UHGV virus genome: UHGV-0172060
Origin: a virus
Length of the DNA stretch: 22,377 bases
Reading direction: 5' to 3' (one strand)
This document shows positions 243 through 12,318 of this stretch, one piece after another. Positions within the stretch are counted from its first letter, which is position 1. Every line of letters starts with the position of its first letter. The notes under the pieces were generated by a model that was not told where the DNA came from, did not search any database, and saw only the letters and a program-made list of their open reading frames with translations. The position numbers and the translations under genes were made by a program.

Positions 243-272
243 AAAACCCGCCTTTAGGCGGGTTTTTTATTT
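243..272. terminator. bidirectional rho-independent terminator between convergent genes
   Basis: aaaacccgcc-ttta-ggcgggtttttt: GC stem flanked by an A-run on one side and a T-run on the other, lying between the + gene ending at 223 and the - gene ending at 271. Confidence 0.7.
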
Positions 273-552
273 AGTGATGTTCTTTGCCCTTCTGTTTGCT
301 TGTTCTGACCTGTTCCCACTCGATACGTCCTTCTTCTCGTCTTTTGTCTATGTATTCCGCAAGATCCTGAATATTGATGCAACGTTTTGCTTTTTGTGAT
401 GTGCCGATGCGATATGTTGGAACGGGCAACTTACAAGCGTTTGCTTTTGCTTCTGCCGTAGCTGGACTCATGCCAAAGTACTTTTGGCTAACTGCTGAGA
501 GTTCAATGTTAGGGGTATTGAATTCAGCCATCAGTAAAAACAAGGTGTTCAT
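271..552 (-). CDS. excisionase-like DNA-binding protein (PrtN/pyocin-activator-type)
   Basis: ORF 271..579 on minus strand; start placed at the internal ATG (552) because GGAG lies 6 nt upstream, whereas the longest-ORF start is GTG with no SD. Small basic protein at the distal end of the leftward early operon; family assignment from memory only. Confidence 0.55.
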   Translation of the reverse strand: MNTLFLLMAEFNTPNIELSAVSQKYFGMSPATAEAKANACKLPVPTYRIGTSQKAKRCINIQDLAEYIDKRREEGRIEWEQVRTSKQKGKEHH

Positions 553-588
553 AATTTTCTCCATCAAAACCGGCTGCACCCGGGAAAA

Positions 589-1161
589 TCATAATTCTGT
601 GCTGGTGGCAGGAATTAATTTCTGCCAGATAGCGGAAACATATTTTGCCTGATGACGGGCATCAGCCAGGGCGTTGTGCCGTTCGCCATCGAAAGGCATG
701 TCCATTTTGGGGTCGAATCCGATGGAACGCCCAAGCGTAACGATCGTGCGTACATCGTGGTCATTCCAGTATGCCCACGGGCAGATTTGTCCTGCTCGCT
801 CATAAGCTCCACGTAAAATTACGTTGTCGAAGGTGGCTCCGTTACCCCAGACTTTTAAATATTTCGTATTGTCTGCGTGCCGGTTAATGAAATGATTTAG
901 TTCTGAGAGAGCATCGCTGATCGACAAAGTATCATCAATACAGATTGCAGCTCGTGCTTCAGGGCTTTGTTTCAACCACCACAGGATGGTATCGCCGTCA
1001 GGTGTAGCTCCTTGCCCCATAGCACTTTCCAGGCTAACAACCGTATAGAATTCTTGTCCGATGTCTCCGGTTTCTGGAGTGAAGAACACCGCGCCAATGG
1101 AAACGATCGGTGCATCCTTATTTTTCCCCATCGTCTCAAGGTCGATCATTAAGTTGTTCAT
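589..1161 (-). CDS. DnaQ-like 3'-5' exonuclease (DEDD family)
   Basis: N-terminal MIDLETMG (Exo I D-x-E motif); ~190 aa; ATG overlaps the upstream stop (ATGA), GAGGTGA SD upstream. Confidence 0.75.
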   Translation of the reverse strand: MNNLMIDLETMGKNKDAPIVSIGAVFFTPETGDIGQEFYTVVSLESAMGQGATPDGDTILWWLKQSPEARAAICIDDTLSISDALSELNHFINRHADNTKYLKVWGNGATFDNVILRGAYERAGQICPWAYWNDHDVRTIVTLGRSIGFDPKMDMPFDGERHNALADARHQAKYVSAIWQKLIPATSTEL

Positions 1162-1970
1162 CACTTCACCTCTTGTGATGGTTTTGCTGCAAAATACTCG
1201 ATACCTTTATCCCAGATAGATTTTATGGTCGACCACGTGACTGGCACTTTAATTTCAATACGTCCGCTCCCGTCACAGGTATCGCAATCATCATCGCCAA
1301 AGCATTCCAGGCAGCTTATAAACGTAGTTTCTGAAAATTCACCGGATAGCGCCCCCTTAGCGCCGTTCTCGGCTGTTAGTCTCTTCGGCACCATAACCCA
1401 ACCATCCGGAGTTACCGGAGAGTTGCCAGACAGTGCGTTCTGCAATCGTTCCAGCTTAACGTATTCCTGAACCCTGTTTCCGTCGCACGCCTGAAGCCAT
1501 TGCACAGCCTTTTGCGCATCAGTGTGAAAGGCACAAGTGCGACCGTCATCAAATTGCATTTCGTAGAGGTCAGCAACCTGTTTAAACTGCGTTTGTGGCA
1601 ACTTGTAAGCCTGGCTTGCAGGTACGGCACCATAGAGCATGGCAGCGCGGCAGGCGTTCCAGCCTTCATCAAAACCGACTATGCCATTATTTAAAGACGG
1701 ACGAGCATCTGGCACCACCGGCACTGGCTTGGCTATATATAGCGGCTGAACATACCAGCCCTTTGATAACCAACTGTCAGCAATGTTTTTACTCCTGGTT
1801 ATTGCCGGAATACCTAAGCCATTGTCTGAATGCAGCCATGCCACCGGATCCTCTTCCAGCGATGCCAGAGCAATTTCATAAGCACGGCGCTCAACATTGT
1901 CTCGCACGTCCATGCTGCTGATTCGTTCTTTGATTTCTTTAATCAGTTCTTTATCGGTAAATGTGGTCAT
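1161..1970 (-). CDS. hypothetical phage early protein with C-terminal CxxC...CxxCxGxG zinc-ribbon motif (Ea22-like?)
   Basis: 269-aa ORF, translationally coupled on both sides; C-terminal CLECFGDDDCDTCDGSGRIE resembles a DnaJ-type zinc finger. Ea22-like assignment is a guess. Confidence 0.6.
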   Translation of the reverse strand: MTTFTDKELIKEIKERISSMDVRDNVERRAYEIALASLEEDPVAWLHSDNGLGIPAITRSKNIADSWLSKGWYVQPLYIAKPVPVVPDARPSLNNGIVGFDEGWNACRAAMLYGAVPASQAYKLPQTQFKQVADLYEMQFDDGRTCAFHTDAQKAVQWLQACDGNRVQEYVKLERLQNALSGNSPVTPDGWVMVPKRLTAENGAKGALSGEFSETTFISCLECFGDDDCDTCDGSGRIEIKVPVTWSTIKSIWDKGIEYFAAKPSQEVK

Positions 1971-2332
1971 TATGCTCCAGCCTCCGGTGCTTTTGGCATT
2001 ACTGCCCAGTGAGTGATGTTGACGTTTTCAAGGTCCCCGACCTGAAATGTCCACTGCCATTCTCCGGTTTCTTTTTGCCCCCATGTATACCAGAGAGAAC
2101 GCCAGCCAATCAGCCAGCCTTCTCCATTAGCATCAAATAACAGAACACTTTCATTCGCTGGCGGCAGTTCAGCTGACACTGGTATTACTTTGTTTTCCAG
2201 TGCTGCACATTTAGCTTCAAGCGCATCAAATTTACGCACCAGGTATTCAGCATCCGTTTCATTCACTTTCAGATCTCGCGGTACACATTTCCCGCGAAGA
2301 AATCCTTCCATTTCGAAAACATTCATGCGCAT
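1970..2332 (-). CDS. hypothetical phage protein (DUF551-like, YfdS-like)
   Basis: 120-aa ORF; start overlaps the stop of the HD gene; GGAG SD. Family assignment from memory only. Confidence 0.55.
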   Translation of the reverse strand: MRMNVFEMEGFLRGKCVPRDLKVNETDAEYLVRKFDALEAKCAALENKVIPVSAELPPANESVLLFDANGEGWLIGWRSLWYTWGQKETGEWQWTFQVGDLENVNITHWAVMPKAPEAGA

Positions 2333-2859
2333 TTGCGTAACTCCGATAATTCGTTAAAGCGTTCCATAAACATCCCGTAGGCATGGCCTGGAGCCAGTGG
2401 AATCACGTTGAACATCTCTGTTGCCGGGATACCTTCCAGTACAGGCCAGAAAGAGCCATCATCAAGCCCGAGATCGCGGCGTTCGGTTGCCAGCATGATG
2501 AGATCGGCATATTTCACGGGCGTACTCATAACCGGTGGTAACCCGTATTTCTCACGGATTACGGCGTCTATTTTTTCTTCCATCCGTTTATAGTCAGGAA
2601 GAAGGCGTTTCAGTGGTGCGGGAATGTCCTGGCAATACGCTTCTGTTGCATCATGCATTAACGCTTCAAAAGCAAATTCCTGCGGCACCAGCTGGCTGCA
2701 AAGAACCGCATGTTGGGCGACGCTGTAGAAGTGCGAAAGATGACCGGCAAAGCGACAGATATTTGAAAGGGAAACCGCGATATCGTTAATATCGATGTCG
2801 TCTTTATTTATCCTGTCATAATAAAAATGCTTCCCAGAAAAAGTTTTGATAAATGACAT
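2323..2859 (-). CDS. HD-domain metal-dependent phosphohydrolase (YfdR-like 5'-deoxynucleotidase family)
   Basis: H...HD motif (SVAQHAVLCSQL...ALMHDATEAY). Start chosen at MSFIKTF (GGAG SD 6 nt upstream) rather than the longest-ORF start at 2886. Confidence 0.75.
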   Translation of the reverse strand: MSFIKTFSGKHFYYDRINKDDIDINDIAVSLSNICRFAGHLSHFYSVAQHAVLCSQLVPQEFAFEALMHDATEAYCQDIPAPLKRLLPDYKRMEEKIDAVIREKYGLPPVMSTPVKYADLIMLATERRDLGLDDGSFWPVLEGIPATEMFNVIPLAPGHAYGMFMERFNELSELRKCA

Positions 2860-2986
2860 TTTGTTCTCCACGTATATGCGCTGCACCGCGCTGAATTCTG
2901 GTAAAAAGAATCCCTCACCATCCGGCGATTATTGAGTAAATTACGTTTCCATAAATGCCCCCGCAGGGGCATTTGCAGTAATGAAA

Positions 2987-3811
2987 TCAGGCGGTGAAAG
3001 TACCAATAAAGGTTTCTACTTTGCTGTCCTTGAATTTCTCAACAAGCAGATCACGAAATTCGTTAGCCATTTCTTCCTGCACCGCCTCCAGCTGAATAAT
3101 GCGCAGAACCAGTACCGGACGATCGCCAGTGATAATGCTGAGGCGTAATTTAAACGGACGTTCTTTCAGACCTTCAAACGGAATGCATTTAAATTCAAAT
3201 GCCACTGGCATAATGTCTTTGGTCTTCGCTTCGACAGACTCCATCAGGGAGCGTTTGCCGCTGAAGTCATTATCTTCAAAATCAGCGGTCTGGTTTGCTT
3301 CAATCGTGATTTTACGGACCGCCGCAGCCGCTTTTGTTGCCTGAATGGTGTCACCATTAGCATCAAAGCCCACAAGGTAGTCGGCCCAGTCTTCAATCCA
3401 TTCTGCCAGTGATTTCTGGGAGTTACGCTCGCCATTAACAGACAACAGAGCAGAGAACGGTGCTGTCTTTTTCAGTTTGAGAGTGGCGGTGTTATCTGCG
3501 TGACCTGGTTCATCAATAGTACCCAGGTTAAGCACACTGACGGCACGCATATTATCAGCATCGATAAAGCAGCGGGTGCCTTCATCTGCAAGATCTTTAG
3601 AATAACGGGTAAAGTCATCGATGCTGGCAGTGGAAAGCGCACCACGGAAACGGAAGCGATTTAAATTAAATTTTTCCAGATCATGAATGCGGAAATTCTC
3701 AGGCAATGCCACAGCATCGGCACCAATCTTACTGATAATTTCATTAACACCCTGAGCAGAAATAAGGGCATGGATTTGATTAATTGCGGTTGCGTCTAAG
3801 TTCTGAGACAT
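2987..3811 (-). CDS. YfdQ-family protein (DUF2303-like) of unknown function
   Basis: 274-aa ORF with GAGGA SD; recalled resemblance to E. coli CPS-53/KpLE1 prophage protein YfdQ, adjacent to an HD-domain YfdR-like gene as in that prophage. Confidence 0.65.
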
Positions 3812-3876
3812 AATAAGTCCTCACTATATTAAGATATTCAGTGATGAGATAAATAATCAGTTAATTAAGAACGATA

Positions 3877-4239
3877 TTAATGACCTGCTGCGCGGAGTTT
3901 TCCGTCAGGTTCACCGGCAAGAGTCAGTAATTGTCCCTGGTCTTCCTGCAGAATAGTCAGGCGACCACCGCGATTGACATACATCGGCGTTTCGGTGGTG
4001 TCTTCTTCGGAAATTTTCCCGCGGTTAGTCGGGCGAACATATGAGAGTTTGTGTTTGATTTTCACACGGTTCTCATCAAATGGTTCGATTTCCAGGTTGA
4101 GTGAGACCTTACCTTTGGTTTTCGTGTTCATCACACCGGAAGCGACTTCACTGAGAACTGCGCCGATTTTGGTTTCAAATACGCCGCCGTCCAGCTCCCC
4201 GATAAATTCCTGCACGTTGGTACTGCGTTCGCTAGCCAT
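3877..4239 (-). CDS. hypothetical phage protein (YfdP-like), first gene of the leftward early operon
   Basis: Start placed at MASERS (ATG 4237-4239) with GAGGAG 7 nt upstream; the ORF-track start at 4470 lies inside a highly structured leader with no SD. In-frame ATGATG at 4253-4258 is an alternative start. Confidence 0.6.
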   Translation of the reverse strand: MASERSTNVQEFIGELDGGVFETKIGAVLSEVASGVMNTKTKGKVSLNLEIEPFDENRVKIKHKLSYVRPTNRGKISEEDTTETPMYVNRGGRLTILQEDQGQLLTLAGEPDGKLRAAGH

Positions 4240-4376
4240 TTTGCTGCTCCTCATCATATCGACCCTGCAAGGTCGGTTGGTTTCTCCACAAAACAGAGAA
4301 GAACACCTGCGGTGGTAGCCGCCCGGATGGATTGGGTTATGAGCCCGTCGTCCGGTGATGCTCTTCTCTGTTTTGT

Positions 4377-4422
4377 AAAAAGAGCGGTACCAGCCGGAAG
4401 CAAGTGTACAAACTGGTACCGC
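4377..4422 (-). terminator. intrinsic-terminator-like hairpin in the early-left leader (tL-like), followed by a boxA-like motif
   Basis: On the minus strand: gcggtaccag-(17 nt loop)-ctggtaccgc followed by tcttttta. The sequence CGCTCTTTTTACAA resembles rrn/lambda boxA (GCTCTTTAACAA). Confidence 0.4.
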
Positions 4423-4825
4423 CAAAGCAGTGGCTGTTGTGGTGGGGTTGTCACTCAGGCGTATGGTCAACCTGACAATCCGGTGTCCTCAACGGGGAAA
4501 GAGTAACCCCGCCATACTTACCGCCGCGCCATTTCGCGGATTACCACAACGCTGAGAGCACTTAGCCAGTTACGGCACCACACTTTGTCGAGGTTCCATA
4601 AATGCCCTCATCGTTGCACCCTGGTCTCTTCCCAGGCGTCAAACCGAATCGCCACGCTGGTTAGGCGTCTTATCAGCATCCTCATTGACTTGCACATTCC
4701 GGCTACCTGGTTTGTTTGCCCGAGCAAGGAGTGGATTGTCCCCTTTAACGTCCCCAGACCGCTAACGACGCATGTGCCATACGCCGTGTTACAACCAAAT
4801 TTTGTCAGGACCTTGTTTGTTGGTC

Positions 4826-4890
4826 TGGAAAGAAAGATAAAATGAAATTGCGTAACGTGCAAGTATTTTATTGCGAGATATGCAATAGCG
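4826..4890 (-). promoter_or_regulatory. PL-like early-left promoter with two repressor operators (ATTGC-N7-GCAAT type)
   Basis: Minus strand: -35 TTGCAC, 17-nt spacer, -10 TATCTT. Operator palindromes at 4870-4886 (ATTGCGAGATATGCAAT, perfect arms) and 4847-4863 (ATTGC-N7-GCAAG); the same half-sites recur in the cI/cro intergenic region. Confidence 0.5.
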
Positions 4891-4921
4891 TGAGTAATGA
4901 AAAGCCACCTTCTGGTGGCTA
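4890..4921 (-). terminator. rho-independent terminator downstream of the repressor gene (tImm-like)
   Basis: Minus strand: agccacc-agaa-ggtggct followed by tttcatt, about 20 nt after the repressor stop at 4942. Confidence 0.6.
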
Positions 4922-4941
4922 ATTGATGTTGAGGTAGGGGG

Positions 4942-5634
4942 TTAATTGTGTCGCTTAAGGGTTTGTGACTGACTGATTAAGACCTTTCCAAAGACCATAA
5001 ACCGGTGTTCGTTTTCGCTGGTAATTCCCCATTCGCGGTAAATCTGATTATCAGAAATTACCAGCAGTTTATCAGGTATCATTTGCAGTCGTTTGACGTA
5101 AATTTTATCATCAAAACCAAATACATATATACCATCCCCATCAAACTGATTGATACTGATATCAACGAAGATGAGATCTCCTGGCTCAATGGTTGGACAC
5201 ATACTGTCCCCACGAACGTTGATAACTTTAATGTGATTTGCTGGTCGTCCACCAAACATCGATACAGCATTATCAGTTCTGTATTCAATGGCATGAATCA
5301 CATCAATGACATCACCGCCCTGGATAAGGCCATTTCCCGCACTGGCACTGACATCCAGCATTTCAATACGGAATACATCCTTCACCTGCGCAACATCCTC
5401 ACTAATACTGTTTTTACATACAGTATTACTTTTGAGGTCTGAGGTAAAGAGATCAGCAATATCAACACCTAAGCTCCTGGCAATATTACTCAGGGCTTGT
5501 TCAGTGAATTGTTTCTGCTTACCTGTTTCGAGGCGCGAGATATTCGCCGCATCCACTCCTATTGCTTCAGCGAGATCGGCGATTTTCATGTTCTTCGCCT
5601 GGCGAAGTTGTCTGACTCGATTTCCTATGTTCAT
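4942..5634 (-). CDS. cI-like prophage repressor (XRE HTH + S24 LexA-like peptidase domain)
   Basis: N-terminal HTH (RQLRQAKNMKIADLAEAIGVDAANISRLETGK); C-terminal S24 signatures (GDSMCPTI serine, VKRL lysine); divergent from a cro-like gene. Confidence 0.9.
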   Translation of the reverse strand: MNIGNRVRQLRQAKNMKIADLAEAIGVDAANISRLETGKQKQFTEQALSNIARSLGVDIADLFTSDLKSNTVCKNSISEDVAQVKDVFRIEMLDVSASAGNGLIQGGDVIDVIHAIEYRTDNAVSMFGGRPANHIKVINVRGDSMCPTIEPGDLIFVDISINQFDGDGIYVFGFDDKIYVKRLQMIPDKLLVISDNQIYREWGITSENEHRFMVFGKVLISQSQTLKRHN

Positions 5635-5731
5635 GCGTTTATTACATTTCTTTATTGCGCGTTAAGCAAATCAACTTGCGCAAAATATTTGCGTGAAATA
5701 ATATGCTCATCACGCAATATGTGGAGGTTAT
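5635..5731. promoter_or_regulatory. divergent PRM/PR promoter region with operator repeats (OR-like)
   Basis: Sits between the divergent repressor and cro-like starts. Candidate PR: -35 TTGCGC, 17 nt, -10 TAATAT. Operator-like sites ATTGCGCGTTAAGCAAA (5654-5670), TATGCTCATCACGCAAT (5702-5718) and palindrome CGCAAAATATTTGCG (5677-5691). Confidence 0.6.
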
Positions 5732-5992
5732 ATGCAATCACCATTACGGAATGTGCGTAAGGCGCACGGATTTACTTTGCAGCATGTTGCTGCGGGCGTT
5801 CAGGTCAATCCAGCGACGCTGAGTCGTATTGAAAGACTGGAACAAATTCCATCTATCGATCTTGCAGAACGTCTGGCCAATTTTTTTAAGGGTGAAATCA
5901 GCGAAATGCAGATTCTTTATCCGGCACGTTTTCAATCTAGCCAAAACCAGAATGGGTTTAAACCACAGGAACAGGAGGTAAGCCGTGGGTAA
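5732..5992 (+). CDS. Cro-like XRE-family HTH regulator
   Basis: 86-aa HTH protein (GFTLQHVAAGVQVNPATLSRIER) transcribed divergently from the repressor; GGAGG SD. Confidence 0.8.
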   Translation: MQSPLRNVRKAHGFTLQHVAAGVQVNPATLSRIERLEQIPSIDLAERLANFFKGEISEMQILYPARFQSSQNQNGFKPQEQEVSRG

Positions 5993-6536
5993 GCATCATT
6001 GGAAAGTGGAAAAACAACCTGAGTGGTACGTGAAAGCTGTCAGAAAAACTATCGCGGCATTGCCAGGGGGTTACGCTGAAGCTGCTGACTGGCTGGATGT
6101 AACAGAGAACGCTTTATTCAACCGCCTTCGTGCAGATGGCGATCAGATTTTCCCGTTGGGATGGGCAATGGTTTTACAGCGTGCTGCTGGCAATCACCAC
6201 ATTGCGGATGCTGTCGCACAGTCTGCTGGTGGGGTGTTTGTATCACTTCCTGAAATTGAGGAAGTAGAGAACGCCGATATCAACCAGCGCCTGCTGGAGG
6301 TCATTGAACAGATCGGCAGTTATTCCAGACAGATTCGTTCAGCAATTGAAGACGGGGTGGTGGAACCACACGAGCAGGCAGCAATTAACGACGAGCTGTA
6401 CATGTCAATTTCGAAGCTGCAGGAGCATGCAGCACTGGTCTACAAAATCTTTTGCGCTCCAGAAAAGAGTGACGCCCGCGAGTGTGCAGCTCCGGGCGCC
6501 GTGGCGTTTTGTGTCTGTGGAGAAACTAACGCATGA
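5985..6536 (+). CDS. CII-like/YdaT-family early regulatory protein (putative)
   Basis: 183-aa ORF with GTG start and AGGAGG SD, overlapping the end of cro; its position after cro matches the CII/YdaT slot of lambdoid and Rac-type prophages. Family assignment tentative. Confidence 0.5.
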
Positions 6537-6871
6537 ACAGTTTAACAACACACTACCGTCGCTCGCAACTGATTGCGCTTCCTGTACCGGGTGGAAAAGC
6601 GAAGGTGGAGTATTGCTATGCAGTGAATGTACCAGGTGACAGGGAAATTGTAACCCACAGCTTTGCAGAGTGGGCTGTGGGTGATTTCAACCGGCAGAAG
6701 GAGACAGTCCTTTGCGACAAGTTAACCGCTGGTTCAAAGATCACTACGGAGTGCCCGTCAGAGTCATTCGTTGGGAGCCGGAAACACAACGGGTTATCTA
6801 CCTCCGTGAAGGCTATGAACATGAATGCTTCAGTCCGCTCGAACAGTTTCGTCGTAAATTCAGGGAAATAG
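6533..6871 (+). CDS. hypothetical protein (ORF A; N-terminal half looks protein-like, C-terminal half looks out of frame)
   Basis: ATGA-coupled start at 6533, ends 9 nt before the O-like start; the C-terminal ~50 aa are Ser/Asn-rich and overlap a better-looking ORF in another frame. Confidence 0.35.
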
Positions 6872-6924
6872 AGGTCGGTCATGAGCCTGTTAATGACATC
6901 CCAGCCCATTGTGATAAATCGTGA
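6712..6924 (+). CDS. hypothetical small protein (ORF B, GYEHEC-motif protein)
   Basis: TTG start with near-ideal SD (AAGGAGA, 7-nt spacer); protein-like composition ([33 protein letters not shown]); overlaps ORF A and the O-like start. Confidence 0.45.
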
Positions 6925-7873
6925 TCTTGCATGCCGTATTGGTCTGAATGAGGCAATTGTGTTGCAGCAGCTTCATTACTGGCTGAATGAAACGAATTCA
7001 GGCACTGAGCATGGCGGAATTCGCTGGGTTTATAACACGACAGAACAGTGGCTGGAGCAGTTTCCGTTCTGGTCAGAGTCCACTCTGAAACGCACATTTG
7101 CAAGCCTGAAATCACTTGGGGTTTTGCGTCGCGAGCAACTCAATAAATCGAAGCGTGACATGACCAACTTCTACACGATCAACTATGAAAGTGAGCTTTT
7201 AGAAGAGGTCAAAGTGAACGAATCGATCAGGTCAAAATGCACTTCTCCATCGGGTCAAAGTGACCTGATGGATGGGCGCAAAATGACACGATCCATTGGT
7301 TCAAAACGACACGCTGTCATCGGGTCAAAATGGCCCAATGATCTTACAGAGAATACAACAGAGATTACTACAGAGAATAAAACCTCTTCTCGTCCGGACG
7401 CTTCGCAACCGGACACGCAAACGGCTGAACAGGAGTTTTTTACTCGCCATCCTGATGCGGTTGTATTCAGCCCTAAAAAGCGCCAGTGGGGAACGCAGGA
7501 TGATTTGACCTGCGCACAGTGGCTCTGGAAAAAAATCATCGCCCTGTACGAGCAGGCCGCCGAATGTGACGGCGAGGTGGTTCGTCCCAAAGAACCGAAC
7601 TGGACAGCCTGGGCAAACGAAATTCGCCTGATGTGTGTGCAGGATGGTCGTACTCACAAACAAATCTGCGAGATGTACAGCCGCGTCAGCCGCGATCCGT
7701 TCTGGTGCCGTAACGTGCTCAGCCCGTCGAAGTTGCGGGAAAAATGGGATGAGCTTTCCCTGCGCTTATCGCCGTCCGTCAGCACGCACACAGAAAAACG
7801 TGAAGACCCGTACTTCAAAGCCAGTTACGACAACGTGGACTACAGCCAGATCCCGGCAGGATTCAGGGGGTGA
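6881..7873 (+). CDS. replication initiator protein (lambda O-like) with origin iterons embedded in the coding sequence
   Basis: N-terminal DNA-binding-like region ([26 protein letters not shown]); central low-complexity linker encoded by direct repeats; GAGGT SD. Confidence 0.7.
   Translation: MSLLMTSQPIVINRDLACRIGLNEAIVLQQLHYWLNETNSGTEHGGIRWVYNTTEQWLEQFPFWSESTLKRTFASLKSLGVLRREQLNKSKRDMTNFYTINYESELLEEVKVNESIRSKCTSPSGQSDLMDGRKMTRSIGSKRHAVIGSKWPNDLTENTTEITTENKTSSRPDASQPDTQTAEQEFFTRHPDAVVFSPKKRQWGTQDDLTCAQWLWKKIIALYEQAAECDGEVVRPKEPNWTAWANEIRLMCVQDGRTHKQICEMYSRVSRDPFWCRNVLSPSKLREKWDELSLRLSPSVSTHTEKREDPYFKASYDNVDYSQIPAGFRG
7205..7390. repeat. candidate replication origin: about five iterons at ~23-bp spacing plus three 12-bp ACAGAGA A-rich repeats
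   Basis: Iterons (a/g)TC(g/a)GGTCAAA(a/g)TG centred near 7210, 7233, 7256, 7302, 7326; then ACAGAGAATACA / ACAGAGATTACT / ACAGAGAATAAA at 7346, 7358, 7370. Confidence 0.65.
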
Positions 7874-11565: not shown

Positions 11566-12318
11566 ATGAACCTTGAAGCCTTACCAAAATATTACTCCCC
11601 AAAATCTCCCAAATTGAGCGATGAGGCACCGGCGACAGGCTCGAGTGGTTTAACGATTACGGATGTGATGGCTGCGCAGGGGATGGTGCAGTCGAAAGCA
11701 CCGCTTGGGTTTGCCTTATTTCTGGCAAAAGTTGGTGTTCAGGATCCTCAGTTTGCGATTGAAGGTCTGCTCAATTACGCGATGGCACTGGATAACCCGA
11801 CATTGAACAAATTGAGTGAAGAAACCCGGTTACAGATCATCCCTTACCTTGTGAATTTTGCCTTTGCTGATTATTCCAGGTCTGCTGCAAGTAAGGCTCG
11901 CTGTGAGCATTGTGCTGGTACTGGATTTCATAATGTATTGCGCGAAGTGGTGAAACACTCCAGAAGCGGGGAATCTGTTATCAAGGAAGAGTGGGTGAAG
12001 GAACTATGTCAGCATTGTTATGGTAAGGGAGAGGTCAGCACAGCGTGTAGAGGGTGTAAGGGGAAAGGTATTGTACTGGATGAAAAAAGAACCCGGCTTC
12101 ATGGTGCGCCTGTTTATAAGGTTTGTGGGCGTTGCAATGGAAACCGGTTTAGCCGTTTACCAACCACACTGGCGCGGCATCATGTCCAGAAGCTGGTACC
12201 GGATCTGACGGATTATCAGTGGTACAAAGGATATGCAGATGTCATTGATAAACTGGTTACAAAGTGCTGGCAGGAAGAAGCATATGCAGAGACACAATTG
12301 AGAAAAGTGACAAGATAA
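11566..12318 (+). CDS. putative late-gene antiterminator Q-like protein with four CxxCxGxG zinc-finger repeats
   Basis: Lies immediately upstream of a PR'-like promoter and tR'-like terminator; CEHCAGTG, CQHCYGKG, CRGCKGKG, CGRCNGNR repeats; GGAG SD. Confidence 0.55.
   Translation: MNLEALPKYYSPKSPKLSDEAPATGSSGLTITDVMAAQGMVQSKAPLGFALFLAKVGVQDPQFAIEGLLNYAMALDNPTLNKLSEETRLQIIPYLVNFAFADYSRSAASKARCEHCAGTGFHNVLREVVKHSRSGESVIKEEWVKELCQHCYGKGEVSTACRGCKGKGIVLDEKRTRLHGAPVYKVCGRCNGNRFSRLPTTLARHHVQKLVPDLTDYQWYKGYADVIDKLVTKCWQEEAYAETQLRKVTR

Follow-up and report, generated by a model that had tools for sequence, protein, structure and literature searches.

The window analysed here, the whole 22,377-nucleotide stretch of UHGV virus genome UHGV-0172060, carries on the minus strand of 271-4239 a run of co-oriented open reading frames (ORFs) that is almost certainly the early-left (PL) operon of a lambdoid Escherichia coli phage of the mEp460/PhiR40/LLS type. 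A preliminary description made from the sequence alone had also read it as an early-left operon of a lambdoid phage, and this is borne out. It had placed seven translationally coupled genes at 589-4239; co-oriented minus-strand genes are indeed present there, but both the count and the coupling need correcting. Six ORFs lie within 589-4239, and the seventh co-oriented gene, xis, falls outside that range. From the right, the genes are as follows:

yfdP, 3877-4239, minus strand: 120 amino acids (aa), 98% identical to K-12 YfdP, with homologues in PF27127
yfdQ, 2987-3811, minus strand: 274 aa, DUF2303, 99% identical to K-12 YfdQ
yfdR, 2323-2859, minus strand: 178 aa, HD-domain phosphohydrolase, 98% identical to K-12 YfdR
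yfdS, 1970-2332, minus strand: 120 aa, DUF551, 98% identical to K-12 YfdS
ORF269, 1161-1970, minus strand: 269 aa, mosaic protein of the Ea22/YfdT type, PHROG 60
DEDDh 3'-5' exonuclease, 589-1161 (end at 1161 or 1164), minus strand: 190 aa, Rv2179c-like in Pfam
xis, 271-579, minus strand: PrtN-type excisionase, from Pfam and PHROGs and from the mEp460 annotation; next gene of the same transcription unit, outside 589-4239

Coupling is supported for the distal genes, where yfdR and yfdS overlap by 10 nucleotides (nt), yfdS and ORF269 by 1 nt, and ORF269 and the exonuclease gene meet in an ATGA, but not for the proximal ones, with 65 nt between yfdP and yfdQ and 127 nt between yfdQ and yfdR.

The first two proteins had been called YfdP/YfdQ-like. 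The family was right, but the genes are the actual yfdP, yfdQ, yfdR and yfdS, 98-99% identical to those of the K-12 cryptic prophage CPS-53 (KpLE1), in which yfdP-yfdQ-yfdR-yfdS-yfdT have the same gene order and the same yfdQ-yfdR spacer as in the window. The gene set is therefore already known, with copies in dozens of sequenced phages besides that of E. coli K-12, since the K-12 copies are this similar and the records of related phages annotate the same genes (YfdP, YfdQ family, 5'-deoxynucleotidase, DUF551 or Ea22-like, 3'-5' exonuclease). Over 300-6000 the DNA shares 97.7% identity with PhiR40_1, PhiR47_1 and PhiR55_1 and ~97.6% with mEp460 (97-98% over most of this interval), and related blocks are also found in Stx phages, SfV and others. 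The order cI, leader, yfdP, yfdQ, HD gene, then exonuclease and xis is common to the window, mEp460, the three PhiR phages, phiSTEC1575-Stx2k, SfV, ST64B and LLS. The differences lie in what accompanies the first genes. CPS-53 has a short YfdT (101 aa) where the window has ORF269 (269 aa), and the common part of these two proteins is limited to the N-terminal 42 aa, which are 81% identical; CPS-53 also no longer has the exonuclease, repressor and leader RNA, all three of which are present in the window. In mEp460 the cassette between yfdR and the exonuclease gene holds six small genes, compared to two in the window. It is nearly certain that the operon is a mosaic, consisting of a conserved yfdP-yfdQ-yfdR cassette, variable genes of the Ea22/DUF551 type (yfdS and the YfdT-like ORF269) and a DEDDh exonuclease gene beside xis.

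The domain calls made earlier largely held. Pfam confirmed DUF2303 for YfdQ (PF10065, 307.7 bits against a cut-off of 26.6, E 8e-92, residues 7-272 of 274) and, by a marginal pass, DUF551 for YfdS (PF04448, 22.1 bits against a cut-off of 22). YfdP had no match in the profile scan, for which the local Pfam copy lacked the PF27127 model, and its family membership comes from precomputed annotation, in which all homologues carry PF27127. The DnaQ-like exonuclease was correctly recognized: it matches the Rv2179c-like family (PF16473) with 251.8 bits (cut-off 27, E 4e-75, positions 1-177 of 177), has all the DEDDh residues (D7, E9, D112, H162 and D167) and resembles PDB 8kel, an "Exodeoxyribonuclease" of 227 aa, at low identity (E 8e-11 over 138 residues). 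For the HD phosphohydrolase, the proposed relationship to 5'-deoxynucleotidases stands in part. The metal-binding residues H50, H68-D69 and D78 are present and align with those of PDB 2gz4 (E 3e-14), the family is labelled "deoxyribonucleoside 5' monophosphate phosphatase" in PHROGs, and K-12 YfdR is annotated as a 5'-deoxynucleotidase in RefSeq, but the YfbR-like profile scored below threshold (PF12917, 24.2 bits, just under the cut-off of 25.9), as did the NCBIfam equivalog NF003009 (19.9 bits, cut-off 122). Judged by its sequence, the protein is an orthologue of YfdR (98%) and not a YfbR equivalog. The "zinc-ribbon protein" is ORF269, which does have C-terminal Cys motifs (CLEC and CDTCDGSG) but matched no Pfam family, DUF551 included. 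Sequence searches of the PDB with YfdP, ORF269 and YfdS gave nothing meaningful. The Q antiterminator of the window (11566-12318, plus strand) matches the DnaJ-type CXXCXGXG zinc finger below the cut-off (30 bits), and its Cys motif is of the same type as that at the ORF269 C terminus.

The distribution of these genes was surveyed in two samples: 80 loci that almost all come from different species, in which tblastn with the window proteins was combined with clustering of the neighbouring ORFs, and 80 near-identical E. coli prophage loci. At the species level, 79 of 80 loci have yfdP immediately upstream of yfdQ, the sole exception being cut by a contig end. In 58 loci a yfdR gene follows within 4.5 kb (48 times as the very next ORF), in 58 there is a same-strand cI-type repressor gene ~2.1 kb upstream, and in 38 an Rv2179c-type exonuclease gene is found within 4.5 kb. 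The E. coli prophages carry yfdPQR together in 79 of 80 loci, while yfdS is present in ~50, the exonuclease gene in ~16 and ORF269 in ~6. Because of these presence counts in both sets, yfdP-yfdQ(-yfdR) stands out as the conserved core of the operon, with the other genes as variable cargo. The pair spans Enterobacterales, Vibrionales, Oceanospirillales and high-GC prophages. The distant loci (42-47% identity), in Kistimonas, Hahella, Marinobacter, Pontibacterium, Photobacterium and Vibrio, have no yfdR. In Kistimonas, Hahella and Pontibacterium the pair adjoins genes for a YqaJ exonuclease, RecT or a probable Rad52-like single-strand annealing protein (SSAP), a single-stranded DNA-binding protein (SSB) and Sipho_Gp157, the Rad52-like and Erf-like SSAP labels used here coming from sequence motifs in proteins that have no Pfam match. 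One distant locus has a gene for a gp5.9-like RecBCD inhibitor beside the pair.

The YfdQ family comprises 1,787 clusters at 50% identity (E<=1e-3), and in the best 150 of these nearly all proteins are ~265-285 aa, with a few shorter fragments and no fusions. A homologue has been solved as PDB 9o7m ("YfdQ Protein", 274 aa, 36 chains, E 1.9e-44). No paper on this entry was found, and it must be very recent since it is not in a Foldseek copy of the PDB running to April 2026. Its close relatives (87-93% identical) are found in high-GC prophages (loci L290 and L291), and in L291 (yfdQ at 5962-6786, 87% identical) sequence motifs give the gene order yfdP, yfdQ, coiled-coil protein, Erf-like SSAP, YqaJ exonuclease, SSB. 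The AlphaFold 2 model of YfdQ (pLDDT 76.6) had no whole-fold match among solved structures in Foldseek, and that of YfdP, a long helix with a three-stranded sheet, had no informative fold match. A reading of the conserved CFID...PGHAD...K segment of YfdQ as a PD-(D/E)xK nuclease was rejected, as the lysines are not kept in the 9o7m homologue.

To the right of the operon lie genes for an S24-type cI (4942-5634, minus strand), Cro and a CP76-type CII, and then a 330-aa ORF (6881-7873, plus strand) with no Pfam match, taken as the O-type replication gene by position only. It is followed by genes for PerC-like, Dam, RusA, KilA-N, DUF968, Q and methyltransferase proteins. No N gene, P/DnaB-type gene or recombination module was seen in the ORFs examined, which right of 6500 were the larger ones. 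The preliminary description had allowed that the early-left genes might turn out to have routine recombination functions. None of the seven early-left ORFs matched a Red-beta/RecT/Erf/Sak SSAP, Exo/RecE or Gam/Abc2 in Pfam or PHROGs, and the YfdP and YfdQ folds match none of these either. Chi sites (GCTGGTGG) occur 16 times in the window compared to 0.95 expected, and 13 of them are on the plus strand (for example at 601, 6225 and 8387, and as far as 20355). This excess is in line with the lack of a recombination module in the phage. The LLS type has been described as having no recombination module, only an O-type replication gene and no N (Genome Res 2025, PMC12315714), and LLS resembles the window in these three respects and in its Chi-rich genome; the window phage is a Chi-rich lambdoid phage of this "LLS functional type" (PMC12315714). 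The same study reports that clusters of the yfbR/yfdQ/yfdP type are common in early-left operons, with unknown function, and that DnaQ-type nucleases occur sporadically near int in such operons and are outside its count of recombination-module genes.

Candidate control elements of the operon lie in the region between cI and yfdP and in the spacer between yfdQ and yfdR, in which the following features are found:

4903-4920, minus strand: terminator-like hairpin (AGCCACCAGAAGGTGGCT followed by TTTTC) that ends the cI transcript, directly upstream of the PL region
4848-4862 and 4871-4885, minus strand: two operator-like 15-bp sites TTGC-N7-GCAA (TTGCACGTTACGCAA and TTGCATATCTCGCAA), repeats common with the cI-cro interval
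within 4847-4885, minus strand: candidate PL promoter TTGCAC-17 nt-TATCTT, overlapped by the operator-like sites
4616-4787, minus strand: structured RNA candidate of ~160-172 nt, from alignments, RNAalifold and a covariance-model match of 131.8 bits
2860-2986, minus strand: yfdQ-yfdR spacer, with hairpins at 2953-2974, 2915-2928 and 2878-2891 and a Shine-Dalgarno GGAG at 2866-2869

The proposal of a repressor-controlled PL is plausible because the operator-like sites repeat those in the cI-cro interval, but no consensus promoter in the PL region passed the promoter scan, and a leader of ~600 nt separates the operator-like sites from yfdP. There is no convincing ORF in this leader that could provide N-type antitermination.

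The spacer between yfdQ and yfdR opens with a strong hairpin between A-rich and U-rich arms in 53 loci. In the window this hairpin 1 (2953-2974) reads AAAUGCCCC-UGCG-GGGGCAUUU, and the 58-nt stretch containing it has a minimum free energy of -17.5 kcal/mol (z = -2.1). An alignment of 29 long-form spacers revealed AU<->UA exchanges in the stem in 12-13 sequences together with other compensatory changes. Hairpin 2 (2915-2928) is also conserved, and hairpin 3 (2878-2891) has a nearly constant GUGCAG loop on a variable stem. The start of yfdR is the ATG at 2859, which has the GGAG seven nt upstream and agrees with the K-12 annotation; a GTG at 2886 was rejected as the start, as it sits within hairpin 3. 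The spacer is possibly a site of attenuation or processing inside the operon, by which yfdPQ would be uncoupled from yfdR and the downstream genes.

The genes had been described as mostly of unknown function, which still holds for YfdP and YfdQ, but a published DnaA phenotype was missed (PMC4776307). Noguchi and Katayama (2016) isolated yfdQRST as a multicopy suppressor of the over-initiation of hda-185 and found that multicopy inhibition of initiation at oriC requires yfdQ, yfdR and either yfdS or yfdT, with yfdP being dispensable (PMC4776307). In the same work, purified YfdR bound DnaA, with Phe46 in domain I of DnaA important for the binding; YfdR moderately inhibited the binding of both DiaA and DnaB to DnaA; and extracts oversupplied with YfdQRST inhibited oriC replication in vitro. 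As the best-supported mechanism we adopt interference of YfdR with DnaA, with the help of YfdQ and of YfdS or YfdT, since it is the only one tested for these genes. It is the best available explanation of the operon, and we would give it slightly less than an even chance of being right. The binding of DnaA domain I (Phe46) by the YfdR of the window is predicted from the 98-99% identity to the tested K-12 proteins.

If this mechanism applies to the window phage, loss of the S24-type repressor would allow transcription from the operator-flanked PL through the ~600-nt leader, and yfdP and yfdQ would be expressed first. The conserved terminator-like hairpin just past yfdQ would reduce the flow into yfdR and the genes downstream. 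YfdR would then bind DnaA domain I at Phe46 in competition with DiaA and DnaB, and YfdR, YfdQ and YfdS (or a YfdT-type protein) would together restrain initiation at the host oriC, an effect seen with the K-12 proteins, in multicopy and in vitro only. In an O-only phage that has no helicase loader, a restrained oriC could leave host DnaB available to the phage origin, and the exonuclease and a weak deoxynucleoside monophosphate (dNMP) phosphatase activity of YfdR may be side functions in the turnover of DNA ends or nucleotides. A likeness to lambda P was pointed out by Noguchi and Katayama, in that both are early phage proteins that bind the host initiator and inhibit oriC (PMC4776307). The two are not homologous, however; P binds domain III of DnaA and is also a helicase loader, whereas YfdR has the HD fold and binds domain I.

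Several points weigh against DnaA interference as the role of the operon. Multicopy supply was needed for the effect to be seen, the deletion of yfdQRST had no phenotype in initiation, the authors themselves allowed for an over-expression artefact, and YfdQ, YfdS and YfdT did not bind stably to either DnaA or YfdR (PMC4776307). The effect was also measured in a cryptic prophage and not in a growing live phage. Lastly, yfdP-yfdQ occur without yfdR in 22 of the 80 species-level loci, all the distant ones included, which means that the core pair has a function independent of YfdR.

Such a function could concern the phage DNA. YfdP-YfdQ may be a two-protein module that acts on intermediates of phage DNA replication or recombination, for example by handling single-stranded DNA or DNA ends or through an influence on a recombination or repair factor of the host; the DnaA effect would then be secondary. 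The constant adjacency of yfdP and yfdQ across Enterobacterales, Vibrionales, Oceanospirillales and high-GC prophages is in line with this, as are the YqaJ, RecT or Erf-like/Rad52-like SSAP (by motif), SSB, Sipho_Gp157 and gp5.9-like RecBCD inhibitor genes next to the pair in distant loci. The 36 chains of the YfdQ homologue in PDB 9o7m suggest a large assembly, a yfdQ deletion is cited in PMC4776307 as weakly sensitive to methyl methanesulfonate and H2O2, and the window phage, having no recombination module, relies on Chi sites. We nevertheless consider this explanation unlikely. Neither YfdP nor YfdQ resembles an SSAP, SSB, nuclease or Gam/Abc protein in sequence or fold, adjacency inside an early operon is weak evidence, and the cluster is found together with complete recombination modules (ArgO145; PMC12315714) and hence is no replacement for them, an argument made against a recombinase role in PMC12315714. 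A more specific version is more speculative still, and we regard it as a long shot: YfdP and YfdQ would form a constant two-gene module without a known fold, probably a very large assembly, with a role in the replication or recombination of phage or host DNA; in Chi-rich "O-only" lambdoid phages it might make up for the lack of a helicase loader or of a recombination module. The PL-leader RNA of ~170 nt and the terminator-like spacer, both conserved RNA structures, would set its expression.

The preliminary description favoured nucleotide-pool manipulation or anti-defence, in which the enzymes would alter nucleotide pools or destroy nucleotide-based immune signals; alternatively, they could complete the breakdown of host DNA, with the exonuclease releasing dNMPs that YfdR dephosphorylates. 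The HD and DEDDh active sites are intact, the PHROGs label of the HD family is that of a dNMP phosphatase, the two genes are often neighbours, with the exonuclease present in 38 of 80 loci, and variable neighbours in related loci have sequences resembling methyltransferases and other anti-restriction-type cargo. Precedents exist in host-DNA-disposal enzymes of lytic phages, the 5'-deoxyribonucleotidase Dmp of T5 and the 3'-5' exodeoxyribonuclease DexA of T4, which belong to the enzyme classes predicted for YfdR and the exonuclease. PDB 8kel, to which the exonuclease is related, is presumably T4 DexA, judging from its name and length. A temperate phage would, however, gain little from dumping dNMPs, the HD and exonuclease genes of the window are separated by two unrelated genes, and only ~16 of the 80 close E. 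coli loci have the exonuclease. A scan with PADLOC, which covers defence and not anti-defence proteins, gave a generic Cas-associated DEDDh model for the exonuclease as its only match (E 2e-5). YfdR binds nucleotides with far lower affinities than YfbR does, according to Zimmerman (2008) as cited in PMC4776307. A role in nucleotide pools or anti-defence is thus speculation that no result in this analysis supports, and we find it quite improbable. A further explanation concerns the distal genes: yfdS and ORF269 could be Ea22-type modulators of the lysis-lysogeny choice that are functionally unrelated to yfdPQR and merely carried in the operon. ORF269 has its N-terminal 42 residues in common with YfdT and is annotated as Ea22/ead-like in related phages, and both genes are variably present in the E. 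coli loci (yfdS in ~50 of 80, ORF269 in ~6). Ea22 variants carry DUF551 as a portable C-terminal domain, Ea22 favours lysogeny, and the Ea22/DUF551 group has been linked to lysogeny decisions and oxidative-stress phenotypes (PMC10834534). The genetic requirement for yfdS or yfdT in the DnaA-related phenotype (PMC4776307), however, indicates that these proteins may cooperate with YfdQR. We hold passive carriage to be somewhat unlikely.

The operon is real but ordinary, a known and partly characterised prophage operon, and the gene set alone adds nothing to genes that are known and for which a partial function is already published. What is new here are the comparative counts (yfdP-yfdQ in 79 of 80 loci, yfdR in 58 of 80), the SSAP/YqaJ/SSB neighbourhood, the fold results and the spacer hairpin. 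Among the uncharacterised early-gene pairs of temperate phages of proteobacteria, YfdP and YfdQ are one of the most widespread, and they come first after PL in lambdoid phages whose O-only replication and recombination through host RecBCD and Chi are both poorly understood. If the function of the pair were known, it would be easier to explain how such phages seize or borrow the replication machinery of their host.

The conserved RNA structures are by-products of this work that are more novel than the gene set, and the leader RNA is probably a separate lead in its own right. Neither the leader RNA nor the spacer structures had a match in Rfam or in the literature searched; against Rfam 15 the PL leader gave no match at the gathering threshold or at E<=1, only chance-level matches (E ~5), and no tRNA or tmRNA was found in it. 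The leader RNA has an invariant core, GGUAGCCGGAAUGUGCAAG, at 4689-4707, with at least 120 exact matches in IMG/VR that form 48 clusters at 96% identity. RNAalifold predicted 27 pairs from 42 sequences, and 98.1% of the cells were paired compared to 24-38% with the partners slid. Compensatory cells numbered 61, against 1-15 in the slid controls, and none of 500 shuffles reached the observed score.

The same RNA is found in quite different surroundings. In P1 (2501-2685 of L164), P7 and D6 it lies in the C1-controlled ban operon and starts one nt after trnI; in phiV10 (L165), SPN9TCW and a Klebsiella phage, representing epsilon15-like and Klebsiella phages, it adjoins a tRNA-Arg; and in mEp390 it adjoins the repressor. 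Loci L167, L168, L169, L101-L106, L127 and L128 are among those that carry it. Of the 80 yfdPQ loci, 7 have a match to the covariance model, located between cI and yfdP in every case; HK022 and K-12 CPS-53 have none. The RNA is therefore a mobile module, not a fixed part of the yfdPQ cassette and not of the put type. The put RNA of HK022, an RNA-only early antiterminator, resembles the situation in the window in being a structured RNA in the PL leader of a phage without N, and a put-like mechanism has been suggested for LLS (PMC12315714). We rejected it for the leader RNA on the lack of a model match in HK022 and on its single copy in the window, with none after PR. The Rfam families of the prophage small RNAs AgvB, AsxR, STnc100, Esr41 and Pas also had no match in the leader, and the Pas RNAs differ in being ~84 nt long, carrying terminators and lying in late regions.

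The rest of the leader has its own pattern of conservation. A boxA-like motif, GCTCTTTTTAC, lies at ~4372-4385 on the minus strand, ~115 nt upstream of yfdP, in this phage in which no N gene was found. The part at 4428-4550 is conserved in Stx2a phages and Tritos and that at 4240-4425 in SfV and ST64B, and the PL leader itself is a mosaic of short modules.

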